The notes under the pieces: generated by a model
Told to the model about the DNA's origin: nothing
The model's database searches: none
What the model saw: the letters and a program-made list of their open reading frames with translations, nothing else
Translations under genes and position numbers: made by a program
In this document: piece after piece, positions 6,264 to 20,003 of the stretch
How positions within the stretch are numbered: the stretch's first letter is position 1
How the letters are laid out: the number at the start of each line of letters is the position of its first letter
NCBI GenBank assembly: GCA_048882505.1
Contig: JBHLRO010000015.1
Location: 29,696 to 61,695, forward strand
Reading direction: 5' to 3'
DNA: 32,000 nt
Origin: Candidatus Thorarchaeota archaeon
Lineage (GTDB): Archaea > Asgardarchaeota > Heimdallarchaeia > Hodarchaeales > Hodarchaeaceae

Positions 6264-6929
6264 TTACATTATGTCATCATCCGTGATATGATCATCATCC
6301 ATCGGAGAACCGAGGAGACAATCCGGACATAGAGTGTATCCGCTCATCGATGATAATTCCTCAGAATAGTTGCCACAGTCATCACAGAATCCTTTAAAGA
6401 GAGTTTTTGTATGGTTCACATCATTGGGGAGAGATTCAATAAGAAGTCTTTCACGACGGATCCGAAGAAGGCCAGGGGAAAATCGTAAGATATCATTTGT
6501 AGAAACAATAGCAAGAGGGCGATCCTCCTCGTCTACGACAAGCATCCGTTCGATATCATATTGACTCATAAGAAGCATCGTATTTTCTAAGGTTTCATCT
6601 TCAGAAACGATATGAACCGGCGATGACATGACATCATCCGCTATTATTATTCCTGGGTCGAGTCCTCGCCCTACCACCCGAGTAATGATGTCTCCCTTCG
6701 TAATGATTCCTATGATGTCTCCATTCACACCTTCATCAGCTGTTAGAAGGACAGAACCAATCTTATGATCCATCATCAGCTTTGCCGCTTCCGCCACTGG
6801 GCGATTTGCGGACATTGTAACAATTTCTTTGGTTAGAGAAGTTAATAGAGTACGAAGTCGAATATCGCTCTCACCTATGTCGTTTGACCTCAGTGTGTCG
6901 CTTTCGTCTAACCCATTACTCGGATTCAC
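6264..6929 (-). CDS. Tandem CBS-domain protein with C-terminal zinc ribbon
   Basis: Two CBS repeats (KIGSVLL...GIITKGD; MSSPV...IVSTND) and C-terminal CDDC-x15-CPDC. GTG start; exact start uncertain. Confidence 0.88.
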   Translation of the reverse strand: MNPSNGLDESDTLRSNDIGESDIRLRTLLTSLTKEIVTMSANRPVAEAAKLMMDHKIGSVLLTADEGVNGDIIGIITKGDIITRVVGRGLDPGIIIADDVMSSPVHIVSEDETLENTMLLMSQYDIERMLVVDEEDRPLAIVSTNDILRFSPGLLRIRRERLLIESLPNDVNHTKTLFKGFCDDCGNYSEELSSMSGYTLCPDCLLGSPMDDDHITDDDIM

Positions 6930-7043: not shown

Positions 7044-10000
7044 TCAGATAAGTTTGGTGGGCCGTGGGCCTCGGTCAAACAGCATTTGCTTGCGTAGGTT
7101 CACCAGTTTTATCCAGGCCTTGGAATATGCCGATATTTCAGTATTATATGTTTCTTGCAGCTGTTCAATGATATGTAATAATCGAACTACCCATCCTGCC
7201 GATAACGATAAACTGATTAAATCGCTATGACAAACAGGACACAATGAGGAGAGTGGTATGCGTCGAAATACCGTTTTACACCTAGTACAACGGAAAGGTT
7301 GAAGAAAAAACCGGTTCATCGAGTTTGAAGTTTTGATCATGAAGTCATTCTGGAGGATTCCATCCACGAAATCACTTTCTTCAATTCCCCGTATCCGTGG
7401 AAGGATTTTGAGGATGGATTCAACCTTAGAAATAATCGTTTTGGTTTTAAACTGGTTTTCCAAGCGAAAAGATGAATAATTATCTATTATGTGGATTTTG
7501 GGTATGGAAGGGGCCAGATAGGATTGTTCGTATGTCATAAGATCTTCTCTGAGTGGATTTTCGTTCAATGATCTGTAATAAAGAAGATTCAGGGGCACGG
7601 AGCTATATTTGCTTGCTAAGGATAATCCCTCCCAGCTTTCTGGAAAATGAACGATCATGGGAATATCCATGCTTCCCCCCCGCTGAGTAGGGTAGAATTC
7701 TTTGGAGAAATTTAATAACACATCGAGCAGGAGAGTAATTGAGTCAACATCTCCATTGCAATTGCGAGTTTTTAAGCTATGCCAGAGCGGATGGGCCAGA
7801 AGGACATTTACGTCTTTGATGTGTCCAATTACCCTGCCAACCACTGCAATTGCAGAAAATGGAGAGAGTCCCACAATAATCGTACCAATCAGGGTTTCCA
7901 GTGTTTTACGTCTATAGTAGCGTGGGAGGCTGTATAGAGAGGACAATTCATCATCCACAAACTTTGTTTGCTTTATTAGAAAATCACCAGCGGACTGGTT
8001 AATGATCACATCAAAAGGGAAGAGTTCAACCATCTGGTCTTCATTTTTTAGCTCATCTCCATACACATCATGCGAATATCCAAGTAATTTTAGATCCGAA
8101 ATGGATGTATTAATTTCTTTTGGCGTAAAATGCGTCAAAGGGGCATTAGTCATTTCAAATCTCGAAGTGCCATCCTTATAGACGAGAAGATCGTATTTAG
8201 CTCTTAATATCCCTTTGGCTAAATGTTCAGGAATATGGTTACGACTATTAAGATAAGCCACCCCCTTAATCTTATCTACTTTAGCTTCTCCAGTCAGTTG
8301 AAAGGCCAATTCCAGTTGCGTTGCTAGATGAATGGGTTTGTAATGAGAAGGAAATGCATATTGCCCGCATGTGGTGCAATTTCTTTCAGCGGAAATATGT
8401 CCCTGCTTGCATACGTAATGTTGGTCCGTCTGTTCATCGCATTGAGGACAGAATACCTGGTAGGTAGATATCTCGCACGAGGCACAATACCGCTCTGCGA
8501 GGCGTACGTTTATTGTCGATTCACCTGCCGCCTTTAAAACATCTTTTTGACTTCCCCCGTATGATCCAATGGGAAATAAGACGTGAGCTGGCGGATTAAG
8601 ATGTCTCGGTTCTGCTTTCTCTACTCGGAGGATCTTTAAACCAATTCTACGGTGGCATAGAGATTTTATCTGAATGCCAGTTAAATGAGAAAGTATTTCT
8701 TCAATTGTGGGCGGTTCGGGTGATTTTAAGAGAATCTGGGTTAATTGTTGCTTTTTCCCCTTGAGGGCTTGGATAAATAGCTCAAACCGTGGACTACGCA
8801 GTTGATCTCCTTCAATTGTAAAGGGAACTCCAAGGTTACTTAAAATTTTAATCAAATCCGCATCTTGGGGAAACAAATCACTGTTCGACTTATCGATCAG
8901 TAAAAGAAGCTTTTCAAGGTTTCCAATAGCAATTTCATTCCAGTTGAAGGAGTAGTAAGGGTGAAGAGGGGTATTAGATAATCTAGATAGTCCTACAGCA
9001 ACCTCTTGAGGAGGTGGATTTAATATGGGAGATTCGAGATATCGCTTCAACGTGTCTACTGGGATGCTTAGTTTTGCTGCTAAAAATTCTAATCCTCTAG
9101 CTTGTTTAATCATGGCGGCATAAACTTCTTGACTCCACCATTCTTCGGTCCAACTTGCCTCTTCAATAGTTTCAGTTGCAGGGATATCGTCGGGTGAGAG
9201 AAGTAGGTCTCCCATCTCCCAGACTAGCTTGATCTTGTCCTTTAAATCACTAAATTCCGTAATAGATTCCACTCTAATGGTGGAACCATCCTTAAGCTCT
9301 ATATACGGACCAAGTAATGAAGATACTGGAAATAAAGTGATTGGACGATCCATTACATCAATAATAACATTCGTTCCAGGTGACAGCAGCTCTAAGAAAT
9401 GCATAGTTGCTGGGTGAATCCCTACTGCACCCTGTCCAGTATTACGGGCTATTCCATATCTAAGTCGGAATCCACCAGGAGCTTTTGATCGAGAAAGTAA
9501 CGGCCTTGTGCCCCTGGCATCCTTGGAAGAAAAGGATGGTTTTTTCCGTTTTTCAGTTACATGAGGTTTAAGCCATTCCCATTCTAGCAATTCGGCCGTC
9601 GTACGTTGTTCAGCGATAATGTTAATATTATCCATGAGTTTTTCTAATGTGACACACATTCCCATGCGTAATTGATTGTGGATATTGGGTAAATTTCTAA
9701 ATCTTCGAACTTCGATCCGTTCCGATGGTTCTCCAGTAATCTCAACCCCAATACTTTGGATTAGGGTCTCCACAAGATCCCTACGCAAATCTTGTGACCG
9801 ATCTATTAGGGCTAGGAATAATTCCATCTCCTCGATATATCGGTTAACTAAGGCTGGAGACGGTCGAAATCTCTCGATGTGCAGAAGTCTCCTAATATAG
9901 TCTGCGATGAGAATGACGAGGCCGATTATATCTCCTCGAACGTATCGTACAGTATTACTAAAAAAGAGGGTGAGATGATTTGTCCTATTCGAGATAAAAA

Positions 10001-10379
10001 TCTTCGGAATAATCTCTTGGGGAATACTGATCAAACCTCGACTCAGAATGACAAGTGCACTGTGAATAGCCAGGCGGATTAATTGGTTTGGAGATAACTT
10101 GACAAATCGCTCATTAACGATTTGTTTGGCAACCTCTGCAGCAAGTTGCAGCGCATTTTCGTGACTGAACAGATACTGAGGAAGATGTTTGTCGAGACCT
10201 GGGATATTAAGGATTGCTAGGATGTTTTCTTTGGAAGAAAAGGTTAGGCGGGATTCAACTGAATCCATAGGATCGTATTTTCTCGCCCTAGCCTTTGAAG
10301 CAATCGTCAATTGAGTATTAATGTTATTTCTTAAACCTAAACTATATTGTTCGAACTCTGGCACATTCATGGGTTTCAC
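7044..10379 (-). CDS. polC: DNA polymerase D large subunit (DP2) homolog, full-length but divergent and predicted catalytically inactive
   Basis: Colinear DP2 motifs: ASKARARKYDP, GGFRLRYG..RNTG..A.GIHPATM, HVLFPIG..GG, KGILRAK, KDGT.RF..T.APLTHF, LLLDVLLNFS, RGG.MD.P, Zn modules CASC/CPQC, C..H/CTTC and CTRC/CPVC. The catalytic motif reads KTRNCNGDVD (7743-7772) instead of KRRNCDGDED. GTG at 10379 overlaps the upstream stop; ATG at 10370 is an alternative start. Confidence 0.92.
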   Translation of the reverse strand: MKPMNVPEFEQYSLGLRNNINTQLTIASKARARKYDPMDSVESRLTFSSKENILAILNIPGLDKHLPQYLFSHENALQLAAEVAKQIVNERFVKLSPNQLIRLAIHSALVILSRGLISIPQEIIPKIFISNRTNHLTLFFSNTVRYVRGDIIGLVILIADYIRRLLHIERFRPSPALVNRYIEEMELFLALIDRSQDLRRDLVETLIQSIGVEITGEPSERIEVRRFRNLPNIHNQLRMGMCVTLEKLMDNINIIAEQRTTAELLEWEWLKPHVTEKRKKPSFSSKDARGTRPLLSRSKAPGGFRLRYGIARNTGQGAVGIHPATMHFLELLSPGTNVIIDVMDRPITLFPVSSLLGPYIELKDGSTIRVESITEFSDLKDKIKLVWEMGDLLLSPDDIPATETIEEASWTEEWWSQEVYAAMIKQARGLEFLAAKLSIPVDTLKRYLESPILNPPPQEVAVGLSRLSNTPLHPYYSFNWNEIAIGNLEKLLLLIDKSNSDLFPQDADLIKILSNLGVPFTIEGDQLRSPRFELFIQALKGKKQQLTQILLKSPEPPTIEEILSHLTGIQIKSLCHRRIGLKILRVEKAEPRHLNPPAHVLFPIGSYGGSQKDVLKAAGESTINVRLAERYCASCEISTYQVFCPQCDEQTDQHYVCKQGHISAERNCTTCGQYAFPSHYKPIHLATQLELAFQLTGEAKVDKIKGVAYLNSRNHIPEHLAKGILRAKYDLLVYKDGTSRFEMTNAPLTHFTPKEINTSISDLKLLGYSHDVYGDELKNEDQMVELFPFDVIINQSAGDFLIKQTKFVDDELSSLYSLPRYYRRKTLETLIGTIIVGLSPFSAIAVVGRVIGHIKDVNVLLAHPLWHSLKTRNCNGDVDSITLLLDVLLNFSKEFYPTQRGGSMDIPMIVHFPESWEGLSLASKYSSVPLNLLYYRSLNENPLREDLMTYEQSYLAPSIPKIHIIDNYSSFRLENQFKTKTIISKVESILKILPRIRGIEESDFVDGILQNDFMIKTSNSMNRFFLQPFRCTRCKTVFRRIPLSSLCPVCHSDLISLSLSAGWVVRLLHIIEQLQETYNTEISAYSKAWIKLVNLRKQMLFDRGPRPTKLI

Positions 10380-11092
10380 GAGAAGACTCGGACACCATTT
10401 GGGAACGTTACATTTAGAATGCCAACATTATCTAGGGTTGGGATGGAGGGGAATCGATAAACACCCGAATGATCCGAATTTGAGACGGGGAATATAGGCG
10501 TGGTTCCATTTAAGATATAAATAGAAAATACGTCTTGAAAAACGAATTGTGTACCAGATGACTGTTGTACAATAACGGAGTTACCCTTAACCTCGGCCCT
10601 GGCTATGAACGATATATTAAAAGTTTCTATGATCGTAGCCGACGGCTGTAAGGAATTCATTTCTAAATCAAACTCAGCAAATATCTCACTAGTGTAAATT
10701 TTGTCGTCTGAAACATTTGAAAAAGGGGGTTGATTTCCTATAAGACGAAAAGTGATAGGGTTAAGGCTAAGAGAAATGAAAACTTCTTGTACGCTATTGA
10801 GATCTTCAAAATCAGAAATAAAAGTCTCAATTTCGGCCATTGCGGAATCATTGGTGGTAACGCTTCCATCGATTGTATAATCTGCGAGTATGAGTTCTAA
10901 GAAATGTTGTAGCTCGCGTTTAGTATCACCATATGGCTCGATAAGCCCTTCACGATCCACCGCAATCCGGGTACCTCCATAATTCACTAAAACCAATGTC
11001 ATAGCAATAACATAAATGGCTATCAACATAGTTGCTAAAATAAACATTTGTCCTTTTCTATTCCCCAAATGGCGGGCTTTGAGCAAAGTCAT
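10376..11092 (-). CDS. Pilin-like protein with class III (type IV prepilin-like) signal peptide
   Basis: Basic leader NRKG|QMFIL followed by a hydrophobic helix (ILATMLIAIYVIAMTLVLV). Confidence 0.75.
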   Translation of the reverse strand: MTLLKARHLGNRKGQMFILATMLIAIYVIAMTLVLVNYGGTRIAVDREGLIEPYGDTKRELQHFLELILADYTIDGSVTTNDSAMAEIETFISDFEDLNSVQEVFISLSLNPITFRLIGNQPPFSNVSDDKIYTSEIFAEFDLEMNSLQPSATIIETFNISFIARAEVKGNSVIVQQSSGTQFVFQDVFSIYILNGTTPIFPVSNSDHSGVYRFPSIPTLDNVGILNVTFPNGVRVFS

Positions 11093-11093
11093 T

Positions 11094-11609
11094 TTAGATC
11101 TTCTCCCATAAATAGAGCCTCACAACGAATTGACCTCGAAACTGACCGAGAGCAGCAGAGGCGAACGAACTGAGAAAATAATTGGCTGTCACACTATTCC
11201 CCCCCTCAGCTAGGGATCCGATCTCACTTCCTGATCCGATATGTACAACATAGTTGGGATCCATTGTACCATTTGAAACTACATGAGACAAAAGGGCATA
11301 ACCCGTTTTTACGGGAAGAATGGTGGCAATATAATCATTTAACAGGTTCCGATAATTCACATATTCCGTGATGAAACTAGTATCATTATAGAGGTAAATG
11401 ACAGGTCTCAAAATACCCGCTTCATCCGCAGTGGTTAAGATGTCCGTGGCCATACGATCCAGGCTTGAGGTATCTTCTGACTGTTGTACAAGTCGTTCTG
11501 CAGAGTTAATGAGTAGAAGAGCAAGCACCAACATGAGTGAAACCGCGATGAGCGTTTCTGAAATCTGAAGCTGCCCACGGTGGACGCTTCTTCGCTTAGC
11601 AGTTCGCAC
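11094..11609 (-). CDS. Pilin-like protein with class III signal peptide
   Basis: KRRSVHRG|QLQISE followed by a hydrophobic helix; the RGQxxxxE pattern is typical of archaeal minor pilins. GTG start. Confidence 0.78.
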   Translation of the reverse strand: MRTAKRRSVHRGQLQISETLIAVSLMLVLALLLINSAERLVQQSEDTSSLDRMATDILTTADEAGILRPVIYLYNDTSFITEYVNYRNLLNDYIATILPVKTGYALLSHVVSNGTMDPNYVVHIGSGSEIGSLAEGGNSVTANYFLSSFASAALGQFRGQFVVRLYLWEKI

Positions 11610-11612
11610 TTT

Positions 11613-12794
11613 TTACTCGCTCCAAAGAGTAATCGTACATTTCATCAACAAATTTCGGACTAGAACCGGATATGTCCTAGAAAGTCTAGATTCTGCCGAA
11701 AGTTCATCCTCTTGGGTTCCGAATATATCGTAAAACACGCCTGTCGTTGGAGTATGATCTAAAATCGCTGGATAAGAGCCTATTGCCACCTGATATGTAT
11801 CACCGATTTGGGCTATACTGAAAACAACTACAAGCCCATTAGTTGGAATAGGAATAGTTTCATTCCCGCGTACACTGGTTGATAAGTCCAAGGTGGTATT
11901 TGAAAATCCTCCAACTGTGTCCTGGTATAGGATGGAAACATAATGCTGATCTGGGCTTTGTATGAGTTGATCCGAAACCAACAAGGTCGTAGAGTTTATA
12001 CCTCCACCCCACACTGTGCTCGAAGAAGCCGTTCCTATTACCGCTTGACTGAATGCAGGATTGGGATCAATATAGGCCCAGTTCACACCCCAAAGAGCCC
12101 CTTTTTCTACAATACTTAGAACCATGTGCTCTGCATCAGGAATACCTGCATTAGGTATCAAATAATTTTTGGATGCCTGTCCTGCCGCATCAGTTATGGA
12201 AACCCCTAGGGAAGCGATCGTTCCAGTCGTAAAGTCAACCACAAAAAAATTGGCCTTTGCGGATGATATCGGAGACGCGTGTGCATTCCAGGTTCCTACG
12301 GTAATAATATTTGTATTATTATTGCTATTTAAGACCGCAACTTCGACAGAGGTTTCAAGAGTAGGTAGAAGGGCAAGCTGGAAATCTCTTCCTGAAGGGA
12401 GATGGATGGCCTCTTTTAGTGCTGTATAATCGAACGTACTATATCCAGATATTTGAAAGACTGGGAAATCTGTTCCTGTAACCAATCTGGCCATTTTTGC
12501 TGGATCTATAGTCAAAGAAACGGTGGAAATATCGCTACCCAATCCAAAAGTGGTAGGAAGTGTTTGCCGATATCCCCAATCTGGATCCCCCTCTTCCAGT
12601 AAGATTGAACGGGCAAAAATGTCGAGTTCTTCCACGGTTATTCCTTTTAAGGTGGAGACTTGAATTCCAGCTTGAATAGTGACAATTATCAGGATGAGTT
12701 GGGATAGCATGAGCATAAAGAGTAAAAGACTCACGATGAAGTCTACTGCTCGTATCTGTGCTCTTCTACGTTTGAAACGTCCATGGTATCCCAT
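11613..12794 (-). CDS. Large pilin-like/adhesin-like protein with class III signal peptide
   Basis: KRRRA|QIRAVDF followed by a hydrophobic helix, then EEGDPDWG and a beta-rich Thr/Ser/Val extracellular region. Confidence 0.75.
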   Translation of the reverse strand: MGYHGRFKRRRAQIRAVDFIVSLLLFMLMLSQLILIIVTIQAGIQVSTLKGITVEELDIFARSILLEEGDPDWGYRQTLPTTFGLGSDISTVSLTIDPAKMARLVTGTDFPVFQISGYSTFDYTALKEAIHLPSGRDFQLALLPTLETSVEVAVLNSNNNTNIITVGTWNAHASPISSAKANFFVVDFTTGTIASLGVSITDAAGQASKNYLIPNAGIPDAEHMVLSIVEKGALWGVNWAYIDPNPAFSQAVIGTASSSTVWGGGINSTTLLVSDQLIQSPDQHYVSILYQDTVGGFSNTTLDLSTSVRGNETIPIPTNGLVVVFSIAQIGDTYQVAIGSYPAILDHTPTTGVFYDIFGTQEDELSAESRLSRTYPVLVRNLLMKCTITLWSE

Positions 12795-12847
12795 TATAAT
12801 GCACGTTTAACAACTAATTTTCGACTTTCTAATAAAAACCCCGATTT

Positions 12848-13300
12848 TTATACCGAATCTTCAGCTTCAGAAGCACCGATATTTGAAACCTCAAGTTGAA
12901 TAATGACTTCCTCCACCCGATCCTTGAACTCCAGCAGTGTTGTTTCCAGCTCTGTTAACTGCAACCCTTTTTCCAACAAGCTTGTGGCCTGGCCTATCAA
13001 TTCATCGGCTTTCTGTGCTTTTCCACTACTAATCTGTGCGGTCAGTTCGGACAATTTGTCAACCTTAGTAACGATCTGATTTACCAAAATTTCGATCTGG
13101 GAAATCCTTCCCTCAAGCGGGGCTAGATCGACCTCAACAGGAGCAGAAACAGGACTTCCAGTGATTGAGGAGAGCTTACTTGGATCCATTGTTCCTGCTC
13201 CCATTCCTTGGACAAGCAAAAACTCCATATTCTGGATTTTATCCTCTAGTAAGCTGACTTTCGTAAGCAATTCTTCCAACATTTTTTCTTCTTTACCCAT
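12848..13300 (-). CDS. Acidic coiled-coil protein within the pilus operon
   Basis: Heptad-like Leu/Ile/Val spacing in two segments separated by a Gly/Ser/Pro linker. No TM segment or signal peptide. Starts 22 nt after the TadC-like stop. Confidence 0.7.
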   Translation of the reverse strand: MGKEEKMLEELLTKVSLLEDKIQNMEFLLVQGMGAGTMDPSKLSSITGSPVSAPVEVDLAPLEGRISQIEILVNQIVTKVDKLSELTAQISSGKAQKADELIGQATSLLEKGLQLTELETTLLEFKDRVEEVIIQLEVSNIGASEAEDSV

Positions 13301-13322
13301 TCTACATCACACAGAGTCAAAT

Positions 13323-14300
13323 TTAAACCAAGAACACTATTGATCCTTTGAAGATAATGTAGCAGGCCGCTAATAAGAAACACGAATGTCTGAGACCGAT
13401 TTTTGCATCTCCTTCTCCCATTTTTCCTGCAATCAAACCTGAAAATACCGCCTCAATGACCATCAGATGAAAAAATACGAGCTGGAGGCCGGCCAAATTA
13501 AATGGCAGTCCAGCTGTTGGACGTTGACCTTCCGTAACCGCAGAAACAATTTGGATTGCCAGCGTTTGAAAGAAAGAAACCAACAGGATAATCATAACAA
13601 TCGAAAATACGATAAAACTGGCATAAATAATCCAGGTATATGGTTTCATCGCACCGAGTCGTTCACGTTTTAATCCCAGGATTTCAGAGACATGAGTATG
13701 AGCAGATTCGAACACTTCCTCGATTGCACCGCCTGACCGTTCTGCTTCCAAAATCAATAACGAAGTCCTTTTCATGAGGGGAGTATCAGCATGCTCTGTT
13801 AATCCACGCAAAGTATTGCTGAAAGGAATTCCCCAGCTGATTTTGGCTGCCATCTTCTTCAGTTCAGGAGTGAGCGATCCATACTGATGTTTGGATGCCT
13901 CCATGATGGCGCGAGGAAGCGGGAGGCCAGTTTTTTGGGCATCCGAGATTTCCCTCAGCAATGAAGGAATGTGGTCGTCAATATCGTCACGCCATCGTCT
14001 ATCCGAGGTATAGGCCCAAGCGGGGACCAAAATCAGTGCGAAAATCGTAACTATTGTTGCATCAATAATGTCAAAGAAATTGAGGATTGGGTCTCGGATT
14101 ACCTCGCTAATGGATCTGAGAAAAGGATGAGCTTGCCCCTCTGGAATGGGGGGATCCGTTGGCGATGGCATTGAAACAGATCCGATATGTTCTAAAACGG
14201 GAATATAAAAACCGATAAGGACAATGACTGATATAATAATGAAGAGGATGCCAGAAACAATCCAGATTCTTTGTTCACGTTTTTCGGTTAACTTTCCCAT
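13323..14300 (-). CDS. Type II secretion F / TadC / FlaJ-like membrane platform protein
   Basis: IDDHIPSLLREI...TGLPL..AI, YGSLTPEL, WG, AERSGG motif, and C-terminal TM helices with SGLIAGKMGEG. Confidence 0.9.
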   Translation of the reverse strand: MGKLTEKREQRIWIVSGILFIIISVIVLIGFYIPVLEHIGSVSMPSPTDPPIPEGQAHPFLRSISEVIRDPILNFFDIIDATIVTIFALILVPAWAYTSDRRWRDDIDDHIPSLLREISDAQKTGLPLPRAIMEASKHQYGSLTPELKKMAAKISWGIPFSNTLRGLTEHADTPLMKRTSLLILEAERSGGAIEEVFESAHTHVSEILGLKRERLGAMKPYTWIIYASFIVFSIVMIILLVSFFQTLAIQIVSAVTEGQRPTAGLPFNLAGLQLVFFHLMVIEAVFSGLIAGKMGEGDAKIGLRHSCFLLAACYIIFKGSIVFLV

Positions 14301-14319
14301 GCAGTATCCTCCGATGTGT

Positions 14320-15207
14320 TTAGATTTCTCTTGAAGCTGATGTAACCAATAGAATCATAATTGACAACATAAGTGGCATAAGGAAGTAGGTCAATAACAG
14401 CATGACAGCTGTCCCCAACTGAGTGGCATCTGGGGATATCACAGCAAGAATAGCTAAAATGACTACAAAGAAGAGTGGAGCAACAACACCTAAGATCATG
14501 AAGATTTCTGCGAGAACCCCCAATTGTTCAATGAATTCCTTGGTCTCTTCTTCTTTAAGTTTCATGTGAGCCTTAGTTTCCGCAGCAAGATAGAATGTTA
14601 AGTCTCCACCACTTGTGATGGTTGCCGATATACCATCCAAGAATTTAGAAAATCGTTCACTGGGCGATCTGTCACTTGCAGTTCGTAATGCTTTTAGTAT
14701 ATCATATCCAAAAATTTCTATGTCGCGTGTAATCCGTTTACTCTCCTTAGAGATCTCAGGGGCCACAGACTCTTCACCTGCCAGAGAATAGAATAATCGG
14801 TCAGGAGGAACCCCACTGGAAGTCATAGCGGAGAGATAGGAAGCTGTGGAAGTAAGTCCTGCATCTAAAAGGAATTTACGATCCTGTGCCCGCATTGATG
14901 GCCAATACAAGAATGGAAGATATGTTAATAGTCCAATTAGGCCACCAAGTATCAATCCAATTATAATAATAAAGATTAATAGATCGGCTCCAAGAAAAGT
15001 TAATCCTCCAACAATTGAAAGAATCGTGACTAGGATTCCTACGAGTATTGAGCTGAAAATCGCGGTTCCTAAGTATGATCGAACAGAGATATCCATTCCA
15101 GCCTTTTTGAGGCTTGTACCCAAGCGATCAAAGCGGCCTTTTTCGATCCAAGGTTCCAAGTATCTGCCAAACCTCAAATAGCCAACTCGGCGAATAACTT
15201 TACTCAC
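14320..15207 (-). CDS. Type II secretion F / TadC / FlaJ-like membrane platform protein
   Basis: LKKAGM, SSGVPP, RDIEIFGYD, SPSERF..FL.G...TI.SGGDL..YL, several TM helices; directly downstream of the ATPase. Confidence 0.9.
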   Translation of the reverse strand: MSKVIRRVGYLRFGRYLEPWIEKGRFDRLGTSLKKAGMDISVRSYLGTAIFSSILVGILVTILSIVGGLTFLGADLLIFIIIIGLILGGLIGLLTYLPFLYWPSMRAQDRKFLLDAGLTSTASYLSAMTSSGVPPDRLFYSLAGEESVAPEISKESKRITRDIEIFGYDILKALRTASDRSPSERFSKFLDGISATITSGGDLTFYLAAETKAHMKLKEEETKEFIEQLGVLAEIFMILGVVAPLFFVVILAILAVISPDATQLGTAVMLLLTYFLMPLMLSIMILLVTSASREI

Positions 15208-15233
15208 AGAGAACCACCGAATGTTATCAATCC

Positions 15234-16742
15234 TTAAATTGCTTTTAGTTCACGTTTTGCTCGCTCAACGGTCTCTAGGGGGTTTTGATAATAGCTTGTG
15301 ACCACCTCGGCCACTTGAGAAAAGTGGGCCAATTTTTTCTTAACCATCCAACGTATTACCGTCTTTCGCCGCTCTAGCTCATCTAATACTTGAGCTTCGG
15401 TCAATCCTTGCCCTTCCTGAATCCCTTCTAATGTATATGAGCGTCCATAGTTTGTGAAAGTATCTTCCCGCGCGTTCCAACCAAAAACCTTGTTGGTTAT
15501 TAGCTCAGTCGTTACTGGATCTATTCCCACAATTTCGGTGCACTCGACAACCCGCCTTACCTGTTTTTCTCCCCGACGTACCTTTCGAAGAACCACAAGC
15601 ATGTTTAATGTCTGAATCAGGGTTCTGGGAATATTCATTGGTTCGTTTTCGAGCCGCCGAATGGTACCTGAAACACTGTCTCCATGTATCGTACCCATGC
15701 CTGTATGACCTGTAGCCATCGCCTGAAAGAGGTTGTAAGCTTCCGCTCCTCGCACTTCTCCTACGAATAGATAATCAGGTCTTTGCCTTAAAGCGGCACG
15801 GAGAAGGTCGTACATTGATACTTCTCCGCGTCGACTACCATCTGCTTCCCGACCTCCGTACCCTTCTCTAGCTACTGCTGGTATCCAGTTCTCATGGGGA
15901 ATATGCAGCTCCGCGGTATCTTCGATTGACACAATTTTCATTCCCGTTCTAATAAACATGGCCAAACTGTTAAGTAACGAGGTTTTTCCTGCTGCAGTAC
16001 CACCCGCAATAACCACAGAATTTCTATTCTCCAATGCATACCAGAGAAAAGCGGCTAGGTCAAAATCGATGGTGTTAAAGGTTACCATATCAGTGATAGT
16101 TAAGGGATCCGAGCGGAACTTACGAATTGTAAATGTGCTCCCACGCTGGGTAACCTCTCTGCCGTATGTGAGTTGAAGGCGGCTCCCATCAGGGAGGGCC
16201 GCATCGAGGAGCGGTCGAGCAACGCTAATGTGGCGTCCTGATCTTTGGGCAAGTTTGATGATAAATGCGTTAAGATCCTCTTCATTTTCAAATTTAACAT
16301 TTGTCTGGATACTTTCAAACTTTCTATGCCAAATATAAACTGGGATATCAACTCCATCGCATGATATGTCTTCAACGTTATGATCTTTCAGCATGGCGTC
16401 GATCCTGCCAAAACCCACGAAATCTCTTGATATATGATAGTTGATTTTATCAAAAGTCTTTTCATCTAACTTTAATCCATATTGTTTGGCAATCCCAATA
16501 ACCTTTTGCCGTAAATAGTCCCGTGCTAATTCAGGTGATTTTAGGACATTGAAATCGACGTCTAGCTCTTCCTCGAGTACGTCCTTGATCATAGTCAGGA
16601 TATCGGACTCCTTAGAGCTTAGAGGAACCTCCACCACGGTATATTTTGTTTGCTTTGTATCTGGATCTGTTGCTACCAAAGCATAGGAAAATGGGGGTAT
16701 TAGGGGATATGTCTCCCGAATTAAACTACTTGACTGTGCCAT
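15234..16742 (-). CDS. Type II/IV secretion / type IV pilus assembly ATPase (VirB11/TadA/FlaI family)
   Basis: Walker A GGTAAGKT, Asp box EDTAEL, LRAALRQRPD, Walker B FVGEVRG, His box TGH...TIH; also EDISCDG and FTIRKF. Confidence 0.95.
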   Translation of the reverse strand: MAQSSSLIRETYPLIPPFSYALVATDPDTKQTKYTVVEVPLSSKESDILTMIKDVLEEELDVDFNVLKSPELARDYLRQKVIGIAKQYGLKLDEKTFDKINYHISRDFVGFGRIDAMLKDHNVEDISCDGVDIPVYIWHRKFESIQTNVKFENEEDLNAFIIKLAQRSGRHISVARPLLDAALPDGSRLQLTYGREVTQRGSTFTIRKFRSDPLTITDMVTFNTIDFDLAAFLWYALENRNSVVIAGGTAAGKTSLLNSLAMFIRTGMKIVSIEDTAELHIPHENWIPAVAREGYGGREADGSRRGEVSMYDLLRAALRQRPDYLFVGEVRGAEAYNLFQAMATGHTGMGTIHGDSVSGTIRRLENEPMNIPRTLIQTLNMLVVLRKVRRGEKQVRRVVECTEIVGIDPVTTELITNKVFGWNAREDTFTNYGRSYTLEGIQEGQGLTEAQVLDELERRKTVIRWMVKKKLAHFSQVAEVVTSYYQNPLETVERAKRELKAI

Positions 16743-16959
16743 TTTAAATCACTTTTAGGTGTAAAATAATCCGCTGGGGGACACCTAGCGAGAGGAATGT
16801 CACCATGGTTTTTTTTCCGCAATGAAATAGATCTTTGGGGATTTTAATGGCGACATGGTTTGGTTCTTAATTCTCGTTACATTATCTTTTGAGACTTGTG
16901 TTTTTTTAGGCTTGCTATTAGGTTTACTAGACGGTGAACATATGCGTCTTGTTAAGGAA

Positions 16960-17409
16960 TCAAGATATAATGATGGTGATATTATTGGAAATTCTTTGAC
17001 TGTAAAGCGTGATGAATGGTGAAGTACTTACGAACTCTCCACTGGCCGACGTGGTATACCTAGGACCAAGGGAGAAGGTTACGGCATCGTCTATTTCTAG
17101 ATTTCGGGTAAAACCTCTGAGTCTAAGCCGCCCATCCGCAGTAGTTGACATCCGGATCGTATACCGAAATCCTTGGCCCAAGAAGTCAGGAAGATCGATT
17201 TGCATCTGGATAGTTTGATGAGACGCACGTAGGCCTAATACATTCTGCAGAATCTGGTTTTGAACCAATTTAAGGGTCTGGGTCATTTCAATATTCCCAA
17301 TATTGACGCGGAATTGCTCACTCATATTCAGGAACATCGCATTAGTGATTATCACTAGACTAAGTCCCAAAACGAATATTATTGCAAAGGTAATGTATTG
17401 AGAGGCCAT
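16960..17409 (-). CDS. Pilin-like protein lacking a basic leader
   Basis: N-terminal hydrophobic helix (MASQYITFAIIFVLGLSLVII), then an amphipathic helix and IDLP...G..Y beta region, inside the pilin cluster. In-frame TGA/TAG stops lie just upstream. Confidence 0.6.
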   Translation of the reverse strand: MASQYITFAIIFVLGLSLVIITNAMFLNMSEQFRVNIGNIEMTQTLKLVQNQILQNVLGLRASHQTIQMQIDLPDFLGQGFRYTIRMSTTADGRLRLRGFTRNLEIDDAVTFSLGPRYTTSASGEFVSTSPFITLYSQRISNNITIIIS

Positions 17410-17442
17410 TATGGCTCACTACTTTGATATTCACTACGAACT

Positions 17443-18402
17443 CTAGGGAGTTGAGAGATTTACATGGTAAATGACTGGCTGTACTATCACATCGAATCCC
17501 GCTAAGTTGGATATTCCTTGGAGACTTCTTGTACTCCAGATGGTGCTATCAATAGCTGGACCTCCCGAGCTCGAAATTCTTTCCCAAACAAGATCCAACT
17601 GCGCTAGGCCGCTCGTTCCTGGTACCACCACAGGAGGGGTACTATTCTGTTGTACATGCACAGAAACCTGCTTGAAATCTGTGCGAAGTGTGCCAAAGTC
17701 TCCCGATAGAAGTACAAGGAAAATCTGGAAGCGAATTTCGGGGGTGGGAGAAGTTTCGATGCTAAGATGGATAGCAATCCTATAATTCAAACTAATATGG
17801 TGACGGCGATCATTCTGATGACTTAACGTTAAATTCGTGATATCAGGCCATGCTGTGGTCGAGAATGGACCCGTTATGAAGACCTGGTCACGAATTTCGT
17901 AAGGATTTGGGCCTGTAAGGTATTGGAAACTTCCACGCGGTAACACGGCTTGCGGGCTGTTATAGACCCAATCTAAAATTCCTATGTCCAAAATTCCATC
18001 TTGTGGATCGATATCATTGAAGATGTTATACACTAGCTGGTCATTTCGATCGACAAGCCTTAATCCGACATGATAGGATTCAGGAGTATAGTCGATCTGA
18101 CCAGAGGGAACCTGCATTAGTATCGTGCTGAATCCACCTGGAGCTCCACTCTCACTAATCAAGGACTTGATGGTGGAATCGAGTTCCAAGAAACTATTAC
18201 GAACCGCGGTAATTGATTCCTCGGTTTGAGCTCGGTCAATAAAAGGTATTATTTGGATATATGTCACCATTACTCCAACTAGTATCAACGCAAAAATGAT
18301 CACAGCTGCTAGAATTGGTGAAACGGAGCGATGCCTGGATATAATTTTGCTAAATGACGGTTTTAATGTAGGGATGAATTTTTTGGACAAGAAATATCCC
18401 AT
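17443..18402 (-). CDS. Pilin-like protein with class III signal peptide
   Basis: RHRS|VSPILAAVIIFALILVG...IIP resembles the archaeal pilin N-terminus RAVSPVIG. The true start may be nearer the cleavage site. Confidence 0.8.
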   Translation of the reverse strand: MGYFLSKKFIPTLKPSFSKIISRHRSVSPILAAVIIFALILVGVMVTYIQIIPFIDRAQTEESITAVRNSFLELDSTIKSLISESGAPGGFSTILMQVPSGQIDYTPESYHVGLRLVDRNDQLVYNIFNDIDPQDGILDIGILDWVYNSPQAVLPRGSFQYLTGPNPYEIRDQVFITGPFSTTAWPDITNLTLSHQNDRRHHISLNYRIAIHLSIETSPTPEIRFQIFLVLLSGDFGTLRTDFKQVSVHVQQNSTPPVVVPGTSGLAQLDLVWERISSSGGPAIDSTIWSTRSLQGISNLAGFDVIVQPVIYHVNLSTP

Positions 18403-18458
18403 TTCATGTGCTTCTTTGCGAACAGCCCGTTTTGATTTAGGCGTACTGGTGCAATTCC

Positions 18459-18476
18459 ATCCTTTTTAAAAAGGAT
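18459..18476. promoter_or_regulatory. Perfect 18-bp palindrome, candidate operator/TATA region in the pilin-radA divergent intergenic region
   Basis: ATCCTTTTTAAAAAGGAT equals its own reverse complement and lies about 57 nt upstream of the pilin start at 18402. Confidence 0.5.
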
Positions 18477-18888
18477 TTTCGTTTTACTACGTTCCATTCC
18501 TAATTATGTGTTACCATTTAAAATGGCCCGATCTTTGTTATTATGGATTCTGATCATAGGCGGCATTAGGCCAGAATGAAAGATCAGAACTGGCATACGG
18601 ATTCAGTACTTTCAAAAAGGATAGTAAGTGTGGGATGCAGGTAAGATTGATAGATGAAAACCACTTTAAACGGAAATCAAATTTTTAAATCCCTGCTAAT
18701 GTAACTGTCCTCAGTTAGAATGGCCACATATCTAGCTTTAGCAATTTTAATCGTATTACTGAAACCATATAGGGTGGAAGAACGTATGCATAGAATATGT
18801 GAGGTTTTTGGAATTCTTTGAAGGAGATCCCGTAGTGGGGTACAAACGTGGAACGTTATTTGATGAATATGACTGGGTGAGGACACAA

Positions 18889-18915
18889 TAGTTTTATAGT
18901 ATAGTAGTTTTATAG
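18889..18915 (+). repeat. Direct repeat TAGTTTTATAG x2 upstream of radA
   Basis: Identical 11-mers at 18889-18899 and 18905-18915 (period 16), each containing TTTTATA. Confidence 0.6.
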
Positions 18916-18968
18916 AGTAGTACGTAGTATTCCTAATACGAGACTCACCTTTAAGGTATGGGAAGATA

Positions 18969-20003
18969 ATGCCTCCCAAAAAGAAAACTGAAGAAACTAA
19001 TTCAGAAGCCAAAGCCAAATCGGATAAAAAGCCTAGGAAAGCAACAACAATTACTGAACTTCCTGGAATAGGGCCATCGACAGCAACTAAACTGATAGAA
19101 GCAGGCTTTTCCACCCTGGAAGCAATAGCTACCGTTTCCATTGGAGAATTGATGTCAGTAGCAAGCATGGGTGAAAAAACCGTAACCAAAATCATTGAGG
19201 CGGCGAGAGAAGCCTTGGACATCGATTTCGAGACTGCAAAATCGGTTTTAAATCGACGAAGTGGCTTGGCTAAGATTACCACTGGTAGCCAAAAGCTTGA
19301 TGAGCTCTTCGGGGGTGGTATCGAAACAGGCGCAGTTACAGAACTATATGGCGAATTCAGGACTGGAAAGACGCAGATTGCACACCAAGTTGCCGTGACT
19401 ACCATGCTTCCGAAGGAAAAGGGGGGATTACGAGAAGGGGATGAGTACCCTAAGGTGGTGTACGTCGATAGCGAAGGAACCTTTCGTCCTGAAAGAATCG
19501 TATCGATGGCTGCAAGATGGGAAACTGATCTTGATACGAACCAGGTATTAGATAACATATTACATGGCCGAGCTCATAATTCTGATCACCAAATGGTACT
19601 AGTAGAAAAAATGGTTAAGGAAGTGCTTCCTACAGAACCAGTTAGACTGATGATAGTAGACTCCTTAATTGCACATTTTAGAGCTGAGTACGTCGGTCGT
19701 GGCACTCTTGCCAAAAGGCAGCAAAAACTCAATCAACATATTCATACGATACTTCGTGCTGCCGAGATGGCCAATCTTGCTGTAATCGTAACGAATCAAG
19801 TGCATGCGAAACCTGATCAATTTTTCGGTGATCCGACCGCTCCAGTCGGTGGACATATCGTAGCCCATGCAGCTCAAACCCGGGTTTATCTTCGAAAATC
19901 CAAAGGAGAAAGACGTATTGCTCGGATTGTCGATAGTCCTCTCCTTCCCGAGAATGAGGCCATTTTTGGATTAACCGCTGATGGTATTGTTGACGTTACA
20001 TAA
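18969..20003 (+). CDS. radA: DNA repair and recombination protein RadA
   Basis: HhH N-domain (ELPGIG), ITTGSQKLDELFGGGIET, Walker A GEFRTGKTQ, EGTFRPER, IVDS, FRAEYVGRG.L..RQQKL, VTNQV, GGHIVAH, RIARIVDSP. Confidence 0.98.
   Translation: MPPKKKTEETNSEAKAKSDKKPRKATTITELPGIGPSTATKLIEAGFSTLEAIATVSIGELMSVASMGEKTVTKIIEAAREALDIDFETAKSVLNRRSGLAKITTGSQKLDELFGGGIETGAVTELYGEFRTGKTQIAHQVAVTTMLPKEKGGLREGDEYPKVVYVDSEGTFRPERIVSMAARWETDLDTNQVLDNILHGRAHNSDHQMVLVEKMVKEVLPTEPVRLMIVDSLIAHFRAEYVGRGTLAKRQQKLNQHIHTILRAAEMANLAVIVTNQVHAKPDQFFGDPTAPVGGHIVAHAAQTRVYLRKSKGERRIARIVDSPLLPENEAIFGLTADGIVDVT

Follow-up and report, generated by a model that had tools for sequence, protein, structure and literature searches.

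Here we characterize a gene carried by a 32,000-nucleotide stretch of archaeal DNA (hereafter the window; contig JBHLRO010000015.1 of GenBank assembly GCA_048882505.1, positions 29,696 to 61,695 of the forward strand), which derives from a Candidatus Thorarchaeota archaeon placed in the family Hodarchaeaceae of the order Hodarchaeales. The gene encodes a homologue of DP2, the large subunit of the D-family DNA polymerase PolD, considered the chief replicase in most non-crenarchaeal archaea (PMC7544198), and all three of its active-site motifs are degenerate. We use DP2* as shorthand for the degenerate DP2 homologues of Hodarchaeales, the window gene included. The host genome assembly comprises 4.3 Mb in 83 contigs and is 94.5% complete.

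The DP2* gene and its degenerate motifs

The gene and the features recognized within it are the following:

7044..10379, minus strand: DP2* gene, coding for a PolD large-subunit homologue in 1111 codons counted from the GTG at 10379
9345..9365, minus strand: degenerate basic (b-) motif I339..V342..R345, replacing K392..R395..K398
8367..8486, minus strand: Zn-I (C632, C635, C644, C647) and Zn-II (C657, H661, C668, C671), invariant in the 21-member clade alignment
7854..7862, minus strand: degenerate nucleotide-selectivity (s-) motif P840-F841-S842, replacing PHT
7743..7772, minus strand: degenerate acidic (a-) motif, residues K870-D879, reading KTRNCNGDVD where the consensus is KRRNCDGDED
7230..7289, minus strand: Zn-III of the C-terminal domain (C1031, C1034, C1047, C1050), part of the predicted DP1-binding surface
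7047..7100, minus strand: clade-specific conserved C-terminal tail LNKxLLFDxGPRPTTL[IFL], replacing the canonical PCNA-interacting protein (PIP) box

The open reading frame (ORF) at 7044-10379 extends through 1111 codons without interruption; since the proteins of relatives begin M-I-E-x-E-F, its true start is probably the ATG at 10370, three codons after the GTG, which would give a product of 1108 aa. The protein belongs to the PolD large-subunit family: the Pfam domains PolC_DP2_N, PolC_DP2_central and PolC_DP2_cat occur in order (E=9e-37, 4e-69 and 1e-78), phmmer matches it to chain B of PDB 6HMS (P. abyssi DP2; E=9e-158, ~32% identity), and the solved DP2 chains of P. abyssi and T. kodakarensis align to residues 285-1092 with E about 1e-157. 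Its scores lie under the NCBIfam equivalog cut-offs (751 vs 1269 bits for PRK04023.1; 665.8 vs 702.15 for TIGR00354), and members of its clade are annotated at NCBI as "hypothetical protein". Homology to solved DP2 was assigned from sequence; a full-length AlphaFold2 model built from the 21-row clade alignment was poor (mean pLDDT 58.5, pTM 0.36, catalytic domain <50) and was not used.

Read on the minus strand, positions 7772-7743 are aaa act cgc aat tgc aat gga gat gtt gac, translated as K870 T871 R872 N873 C874 N875 G876 D877 V878 D879, so that N875, encoded by AAT at 7757-7755, occupies the position of the first catalytic Asp. Relative to a canonical Heimdallarchaeial DP2 (AKRRNCDGDEDA), the a-motif carries the changes R->T, D->N and E->V, the first two being R960 -> T and D964 -> N in the numbering of 9degN PolD. 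D956 and D958 of P. abyssi DP2 are an invariant, catalytically critical pair (Sauguet 2016; PMC4996933), and in the 9degN motif (K959-R960-R961-N962-C963-D964-G965-D966) the substitutions D964A and D966A abolish activity, with R960A and R961A reducing it (PMC7708050).

The a-motif is accompanied by changes in two further motifs. At the s-motif, the steric-gate His931 of 9degN is Phe in DP2*; the corresponding 9degN triplet, P930-H931-T932, is said to be invariable across PolDs, and the substitutions H931Y and H931R leave no activity (Zatopek et al. 2020; PMC7708050). At the b-motif, placed by an ungapped phmmer alignment to P. abyssi DP2 and confirmed against 150 DP2 representatives, I339, V342 and R345 stand where 9degN has K392, R395 and K398, of which K398A nearly abolishes extension (PMC7708050).

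The three Zn modules are retained. Zn-I and Zn-III have the form CxxC...CxxC and Zn-II is a Cys-His-Cys-Cys variant (C657-x3-H661...C668-x2-C671); all 12 ligands are invariant in the 21 clade members. The extreme C-terminus ends ...KQMLFDRGPRPTKLI, whereas a PIP box (Q..[LI]..F[FMC]) terminates canonical DP2s and, in T. kodakarensis, engages first primase and afterwards PCNA (PMC8096248).

Taken together, the alignments suggest that the catalytic and processivity apparatus was lost in a coordinated way, the a-motif change being only one part, and that DP2* most likely has little or no polymerase activity. An earlier note, made from the letters of the window, had reported Asn at 7755-7757 in place of the first Asp together with the flanking R->T and E->V, had given both Asp of the DGD as essential, and had predicted no or very low activity; the substitutions are all seen in sequence and alignment, the mutational literature bears out the role of the pair, and the prediction gains from the replacement of His in the s-motif and of the key Lys in the b-motif. 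Its uninterrupted 1111-aa frame was likewise recovered, with the later start noted above, and its three Zn modules are essentially right, given the variant ligand set of Zn-II.

Distribution, selection and phylogeny

We searched 41 genomes across five families: that of the host (f1, Hodarchaeaceae), a second family of Hodarchaeales (f2), and three families of the same class outside the order (f3-f5). A DP2 homologue occurs as a single gene in 20 of the 21 other genomes of the host family, two being split across contigs, and these proteins are 45-93% identical to that of the window; a relative with a closed 4.9-Mb chromosome (G009) likewise has one DP2. The earlier note had proposed looking elsewhere in the genome for a second polC with an intact RRNCDGDED, but searches of the 94.5% complete host assembly with Pfam PF24846 and with the DP2* protein itself returned one DP2 only. 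Throughout the host family the first Asp is Asn in every readable copy, except for one Ser. The second Asp is also gone in four full-length copies (CNGA/CNGV), one clade member reads CSGN at the acidic motif, and the position of the b-motif Lys is occupied by R, Q, G, N or D.

Both genomes of the second Hodarchaeales family encode DP2 homologues that are more degraded than those of the host family yet full-length, with Zn fingers kept; the acidic motif reads KNRTANGDIDS in one of them, and in the other the acidic loop is absent. The two loci are:

G023:C598:2-3052, minus strand: DP2-like gene L089, 1017 aa, open-ended
G022:C220:78-3590, minus strand: DP2-like gene L090, 1170 aa

Outside the order, DP2s of the three remaining families are canonical, with RRNCDGDED, PHT and K..R..K kept, and several carry an intein at the RN|C junction. 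A broader sample of DP2 diversity, comprising 150 representatives of clusters formed at 50% identity, showed canonical motifs in 141. The nine others are six fragments or clade members, two further degenerate lineages (P0067 and P0148), and one truncated sequence without the motif region; among these representatives the first Asp is lost only in the Hodarchaeales clade and in P0067 and P0148, a pattern well beyond chance. As judged from these motifs, the order Hodarchaeales most likely carries only polymerase-dead PolD.

Selection was assessed from the ratio of nonsynonymous to synonymous substitution rates (dN/dS), calculated pairwise by the Nei-Gojobori method, overall and by domain. The closest informative DP2* pair (L002-L003, dS 0.35) gave 0.093, and other pairs 0.07-0.14, with a value of 0.27 for one nearly identical pair (dS 0.06). 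All domains are constrained, the former catalytic domain showing 0.06-0.11, and a canonical Heimdallarchaeial pair taken for comparison gave 0.091. DP2* is under strong purifying selection, like canonical DP2.

The intensity of selection on the former catalytic domain, where dN/dS is lowest, and the extreme conservation of the acidic-loop region within the clade could be expected of a working DNA or RNA polymerase with a rewired site, using D877 and D879 with Asn ligands, or another metal. Loss of the steric-gate His could even be accommodated in such an enzyme, as small replacements of this residue relax sugar selectivity in 9degN PolD (PMC7708050). The replacement in H931Y, however, is a bulky aromatic, and it kills the 9degN enzyme; the clade members reading CNGA, CNGV or CSGN would lack still more of the presumed ligands, the Lys that contacts the primer 3' end has been exchanged for five different residues, and one homologue of the second family has no acidic loop at all. 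With the PIP box lost as well, and three intact B-family DNA polymerases (PolBs) available in the host, we regard a rewired polymerase as very unlikely.

A DP2 tree (MAFFT FFT-NS alignment of 90 rows x 1086 columns; FastTree, with local support values) recovered the degenerate sequences as a monophyletic group (local support 100%) whose stem measures 0.85 substitutions per site, the long-branch inactive clade whose existence the earlier note had thought worth checking. Where the clade falls among other Heimdallarchaeia should not be trusted from this tree, since the branch is long and FastTree used no mixture model. P0067 and P0148 fall outside the Hodarchaeales clade, and their join is flagged as possible long-branch attraction.

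One irregularity was seen in a relative's copy (L005; G015:C1:2667766-2671071, minus strand), from a single-contig genome that is 70% complete: it contains one in-frame TGA, which may stem from faulty sequencing or from loss of the gene in that genome alone. Such a codon, and the unusual motif itself, might be taken to mean that DP2* as a whole reflects faulty sequence or a decaying gene. Sequencing or assembly error is ruled out by the occurrence of the same substitutions in about 20 independent genomes, and pseudogene decay by the intact frame and by dN/dS of about 0.1 in all domains; we accordingly give these explanations almost no weight. The earlier note had argued from three neighbouring substitutions against a single sequencing error and from the intact frame for selection rather than decay, and both arguments are upheld by the wider sample, with overall dN/dS of 0.09-0.14 beside 0.091 for the canonical pair.

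Partner subunit, PolBs and genomic setting

The small subunit of PolD, DP1, is encoded elsewhere in the host genome and is kept in 20 of 21 genomes of the host family:

G000:C24:10272-11840 (= L032:1321-2892), minus strand: DP1 small subunit, 523 aa, adjoining Orc1/Cdc6 (L032:11-1267, plus strand)

Four of its five phosphoesterase motifs (I, II, IV and V) are unaltered, whereas the remaining one, motif III, is changed from GNHD to GEHD throughout the family (GERD in one member); dN/dS is 0.14-0.21, and a profile of the family's DP1 clade reaches human POLD2 with E=6e-8. We modelled the complex of DP1(120-523) with the C-terminal domain of DP2* (1000-1111). The predicted interface, on DP2* residues 1021-1057 and 1083-1101, obtained an ipSAE of 0.86, compared with 0.00 for the best control, with at least 95% of contacts shared between runs and a partner pLDDT of 80 or more; 58 of 80 solved complexes attain this mark, as do two of 110 mismatched pairs. 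Because PolD complexes have already been solved, the model shows likeness to a known interface and is no proof of binding; with that reservation, the interface between DP1 and the C-terminal domain of DP2* looks preserved. A published yeast two-hybrid assay reportedly gave no binding between Hodarchaeal DP1 and the Pol-epsilon-like PolB of Hodarchaeales (PMC12680538), a result consistent with DP1 still belonging to DP2*.

Four PolB genes were found in the host genome, three of them with intact polymerase motifs:

Contig C18: PolB, 838 aa, with DFASLYPS, YGDTDS and the tail QINLMEFF; passes an NCBIfam PolB equivalog cut-off
Contig C1: PolB, 890 aa, with DFRSLYPN and YGDTDS
G000:C12:94621-99141 (= L081), minus strand: Pol-epsilon-like PolB, 1506 aa, with ELDTDGIW
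G000:C5:69079-71310 (= L083), plus strand: PolB paralogue, 743 aa, with no DTD motif and ending in the PIP box QNLNQFF

The paralogue on C5 is probably inactivated, judging by its missing motif. Two of the intact enzymes have clear PIP tails, and the Pol-epsilon-like one, which has a long low-complexity linker and a single C-terminal CxxC..CxxC ribbon, ends in a PIP-like tail (terminal QKLFFDE). Genes for the Pol-epsilon-like PolB are present in 20 of 21 genomes of the host family and in both of the second (22 of 23 for the order), and in none of the 17 from families outside the order. Its distribution among the searched genomes is the same as that of degenerate DP2; because the genomes are kin, this coincidence amounts to essentially one evolutionary event.

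We consider it probable that the window gene encodes a full-length DP2 devoid of catalysis, maintained by purifying selection as a non-catalytic protein and most likely paired with DP1. Under this reading, bulk DNA synthesis would have passed to PolBs, including the Pol-epsilon-like enzyme of this order, and the DP2*-DP1 pair would have been kept within the replisome in a structural or bridging capacity, with DP1 docking on GINS and the C-terminal domain and new tail of DP2* binding another partner; DP2* might also carry the DP1 nuclease.

Several observations weigh against this reading. The published catalytic-Asp mutants are D->A, whereas DP2* has D->N; the acidic residues D877 and D879 are still present in most clade members; and the most conserved region of DP2* is that around the a-motif (CNGD[IV]DS[IM]TLLLDV), a conserved loop that may point to residual or altered chemistry. 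A scaffolding role in the replisome sits uneasily with loss of the PIP and primase-binding tail. DP1 was not found in the two genomes of the second family, which are 80-85% complete, whether the query was the protein itself, Pfam PF04042 or a profile of the clade, so that the retained function of DP2* may do without DP1. Finally, in the host family DP2* closes a pilin-like operon at its 3' end, a hint of a role outside the replisome.

A type-IV-pilus-like operon occupies positions 10376-19558 of the window (minus strand) and runs straight into DP2*. The neighbouring features are:

6264..6929, minus strand: CBS-domain gene, directly downstream of DP2*, syntenic across the host family
10376..12794, minus strand: three genes for type-IV-pilin-like proteins of 238, 171 and 393 aa, immediately upstream of DP2* and in the same orientation
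13323-15207, minus strand: two T2SSF membrane proteins, in the pilus-like operon
15234-16742, minus strand: T2SSE ATPase, in the pilus-like operon
10376-12794 and 16960-18402, minus strand: several proteins with class-III-signal-peptide-like N-termini, in the pilus-like operon

The N-termini of the pilin-like proteins resemble class-III signal peptides, and the last pilin-like gene overlaps the GTG of DP2* by 4 nt (GTGA). All loci of the host family examined share the order 393-171-238-DP2*-CBS, with junctions of no more than ~10 nt, even where DP2 identity has fallen to 45% and dS is saturated. Linkage of pilin genes and DP2 was not seen in the second Hodarchaeales family or in the three families with canonical DP2; its lack in the latter indicates that it arose in the lineage of the dead enzyme. 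These findings, and the exchange of the PIP box for a new conserved tail, lend some substance to the proposal that DP2* is dead but was exapted to a function tied to the upstream operon, for instance the handling of DNA at an apparatus that resembles a pilus or transfers DNA. However, the CBS and NFACT genes that lie downstream are as syntenic as the pilin genes, and the linkage may be a matter of general gene-order conservation within one family. Homologues of the second family do not lie beside pilin genes, and DP1, predicted to bind the C-terminal domain of DP2*, is kept elsewhere beside Orc1/Cdc6. We therefore hold the exaptation to be unlikely; the same doubt attaches to its most specific form, in which the dead DP2 of Hodarchaeaceae would be the DNA-binding part of a pilus-associated machine for DNA uptake or transfer, a replicative polymerase turned over to a cell-surface system.

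Relation to known polymerases and earlier reports

Inactivation of DP2 has itself already been noted for two metagenome-assembled genomes (MAGs) of the same lineage. Kazlauskas et al. 2020 (NAR 48:10142; PMC7544198), in section 20 and Supplementary Figs S15-S16, list a "Heimdall_B3/LC3-like" group among lineages without active DP2, and in that section attribute the inactivation to acquisition of a B10 PolB; current classification assigns LC3 and B3 to Hodarchaeales, the order of the host. That group and the present one share the lineage, a DP2 without an active site, and a B10 (PolEpsilonN-like) PolB with a C-terminal Zn motif. DP1 of that group is described as divergent and possibly inactive; DP1 of the host has GEHD at motif III and its other four motifs intact. 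The evidence presented there consists of two MAGs and one supplementary alignment, whereas about 20 species and a second, more degraded family are represented here. Compared with that section, the present analysis adds the order-wide extent of the degenerate state, the degeneration of a-, b- and s-motifs together with disappearance of the PIP box, a quantified measure of selection, the GEHD change in DP1 across the host family, and the pilin linkage. A search of later literature for dead PolD in Hodarchaeales, covering few subscription journals, found only Kazlauskas et al. 2020; the passages found in later papers on Asgard replication are silent on inactivation and treat PolD as present (PMC12680538, PMC12770985, bioRxiv 2024.04.22.590592).

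Measured against canonical PolD (P. abyssi 6HMS/6T8H; T. kodakarensis 6KNB; 9degN), DP2* shares the domain order, the three Zn modules, approximate length and a DP1 partner, and the modelled interface of its C-terminal domain with DP1 resembles the solved one. It departs from canonical DP2 in the degeneration of NxDGD, PHT and K..R..K, in the absence of the C-terminal PIP box, and in scoring under the equivalog cut-offs.

Tahirov et al. 2009 and subsequent work reportedly established that Pol2 of eukaryotic Pol epsilon contains an inactivated C-terminal PolB module, accompanied by Dpb2. The parallel with DP2* would be that of a polymerase module without catalysis, kept with a B-subunit of the DP1 family beside an active, synthesizing PolB, and by analogy the DP2*-DP1 pair may correspond in archaea to the half of Pol epsilon that lacks catalysis, organizing a PolB-driven replisome in the lineage in which the Pol-epsilon-like enzyme also arose. 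The folds are unrelated, DP2 being a two-barrel enzyme and Pol2 a PolB, and any contact of DP2* with CMG would be hypothetical.

If DP2* is non-catalytic as proposed, a switch of replicase from PolD to PolB, with non-catalytic DP2 and DP1 kept, would already have happened inside Asgard archaea. Hodarchaeales have been proposed as sister to eukaryotes and are the sole order with a Pol-epsilon-like PolB (Eme et al. 2023), and eukaryotes, in which DP2 is lost and inactivated DP1-like B-subunits are retained, could be seen as the end state of such a switch. DP2* would then offer a concrete system for asking which non-catalytic functions of PolD are indispensable. It also urges caution in genome surveys, where "PolD present" should not be scored from homology alone.

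The two degenerate DP2s outside Hodarchaeales, both metagenomic, have degenerate a-, b- and s-motifs: P0067 reads KHRN-CGGEVD with SPKAS, and P0148 (L091/L092:6001-9441) reads KVRN-CNGNTD with SPDSS. Like DP2*, they are full-length homologues of a replicative polymerase with catalytic residues lost, a condition also said to hold for the inactivated archaeal PolB2 described by Makarova and colleagues in 2014. Unlike DP2*, both keep a PIP-like C-terminus, and P0148 lies ~3 kb from a DP1-Cdc6 pair. P0067 and P0148 may correspond to the Nitrososphaeria-like group of Kazlauskas et al. 2020.

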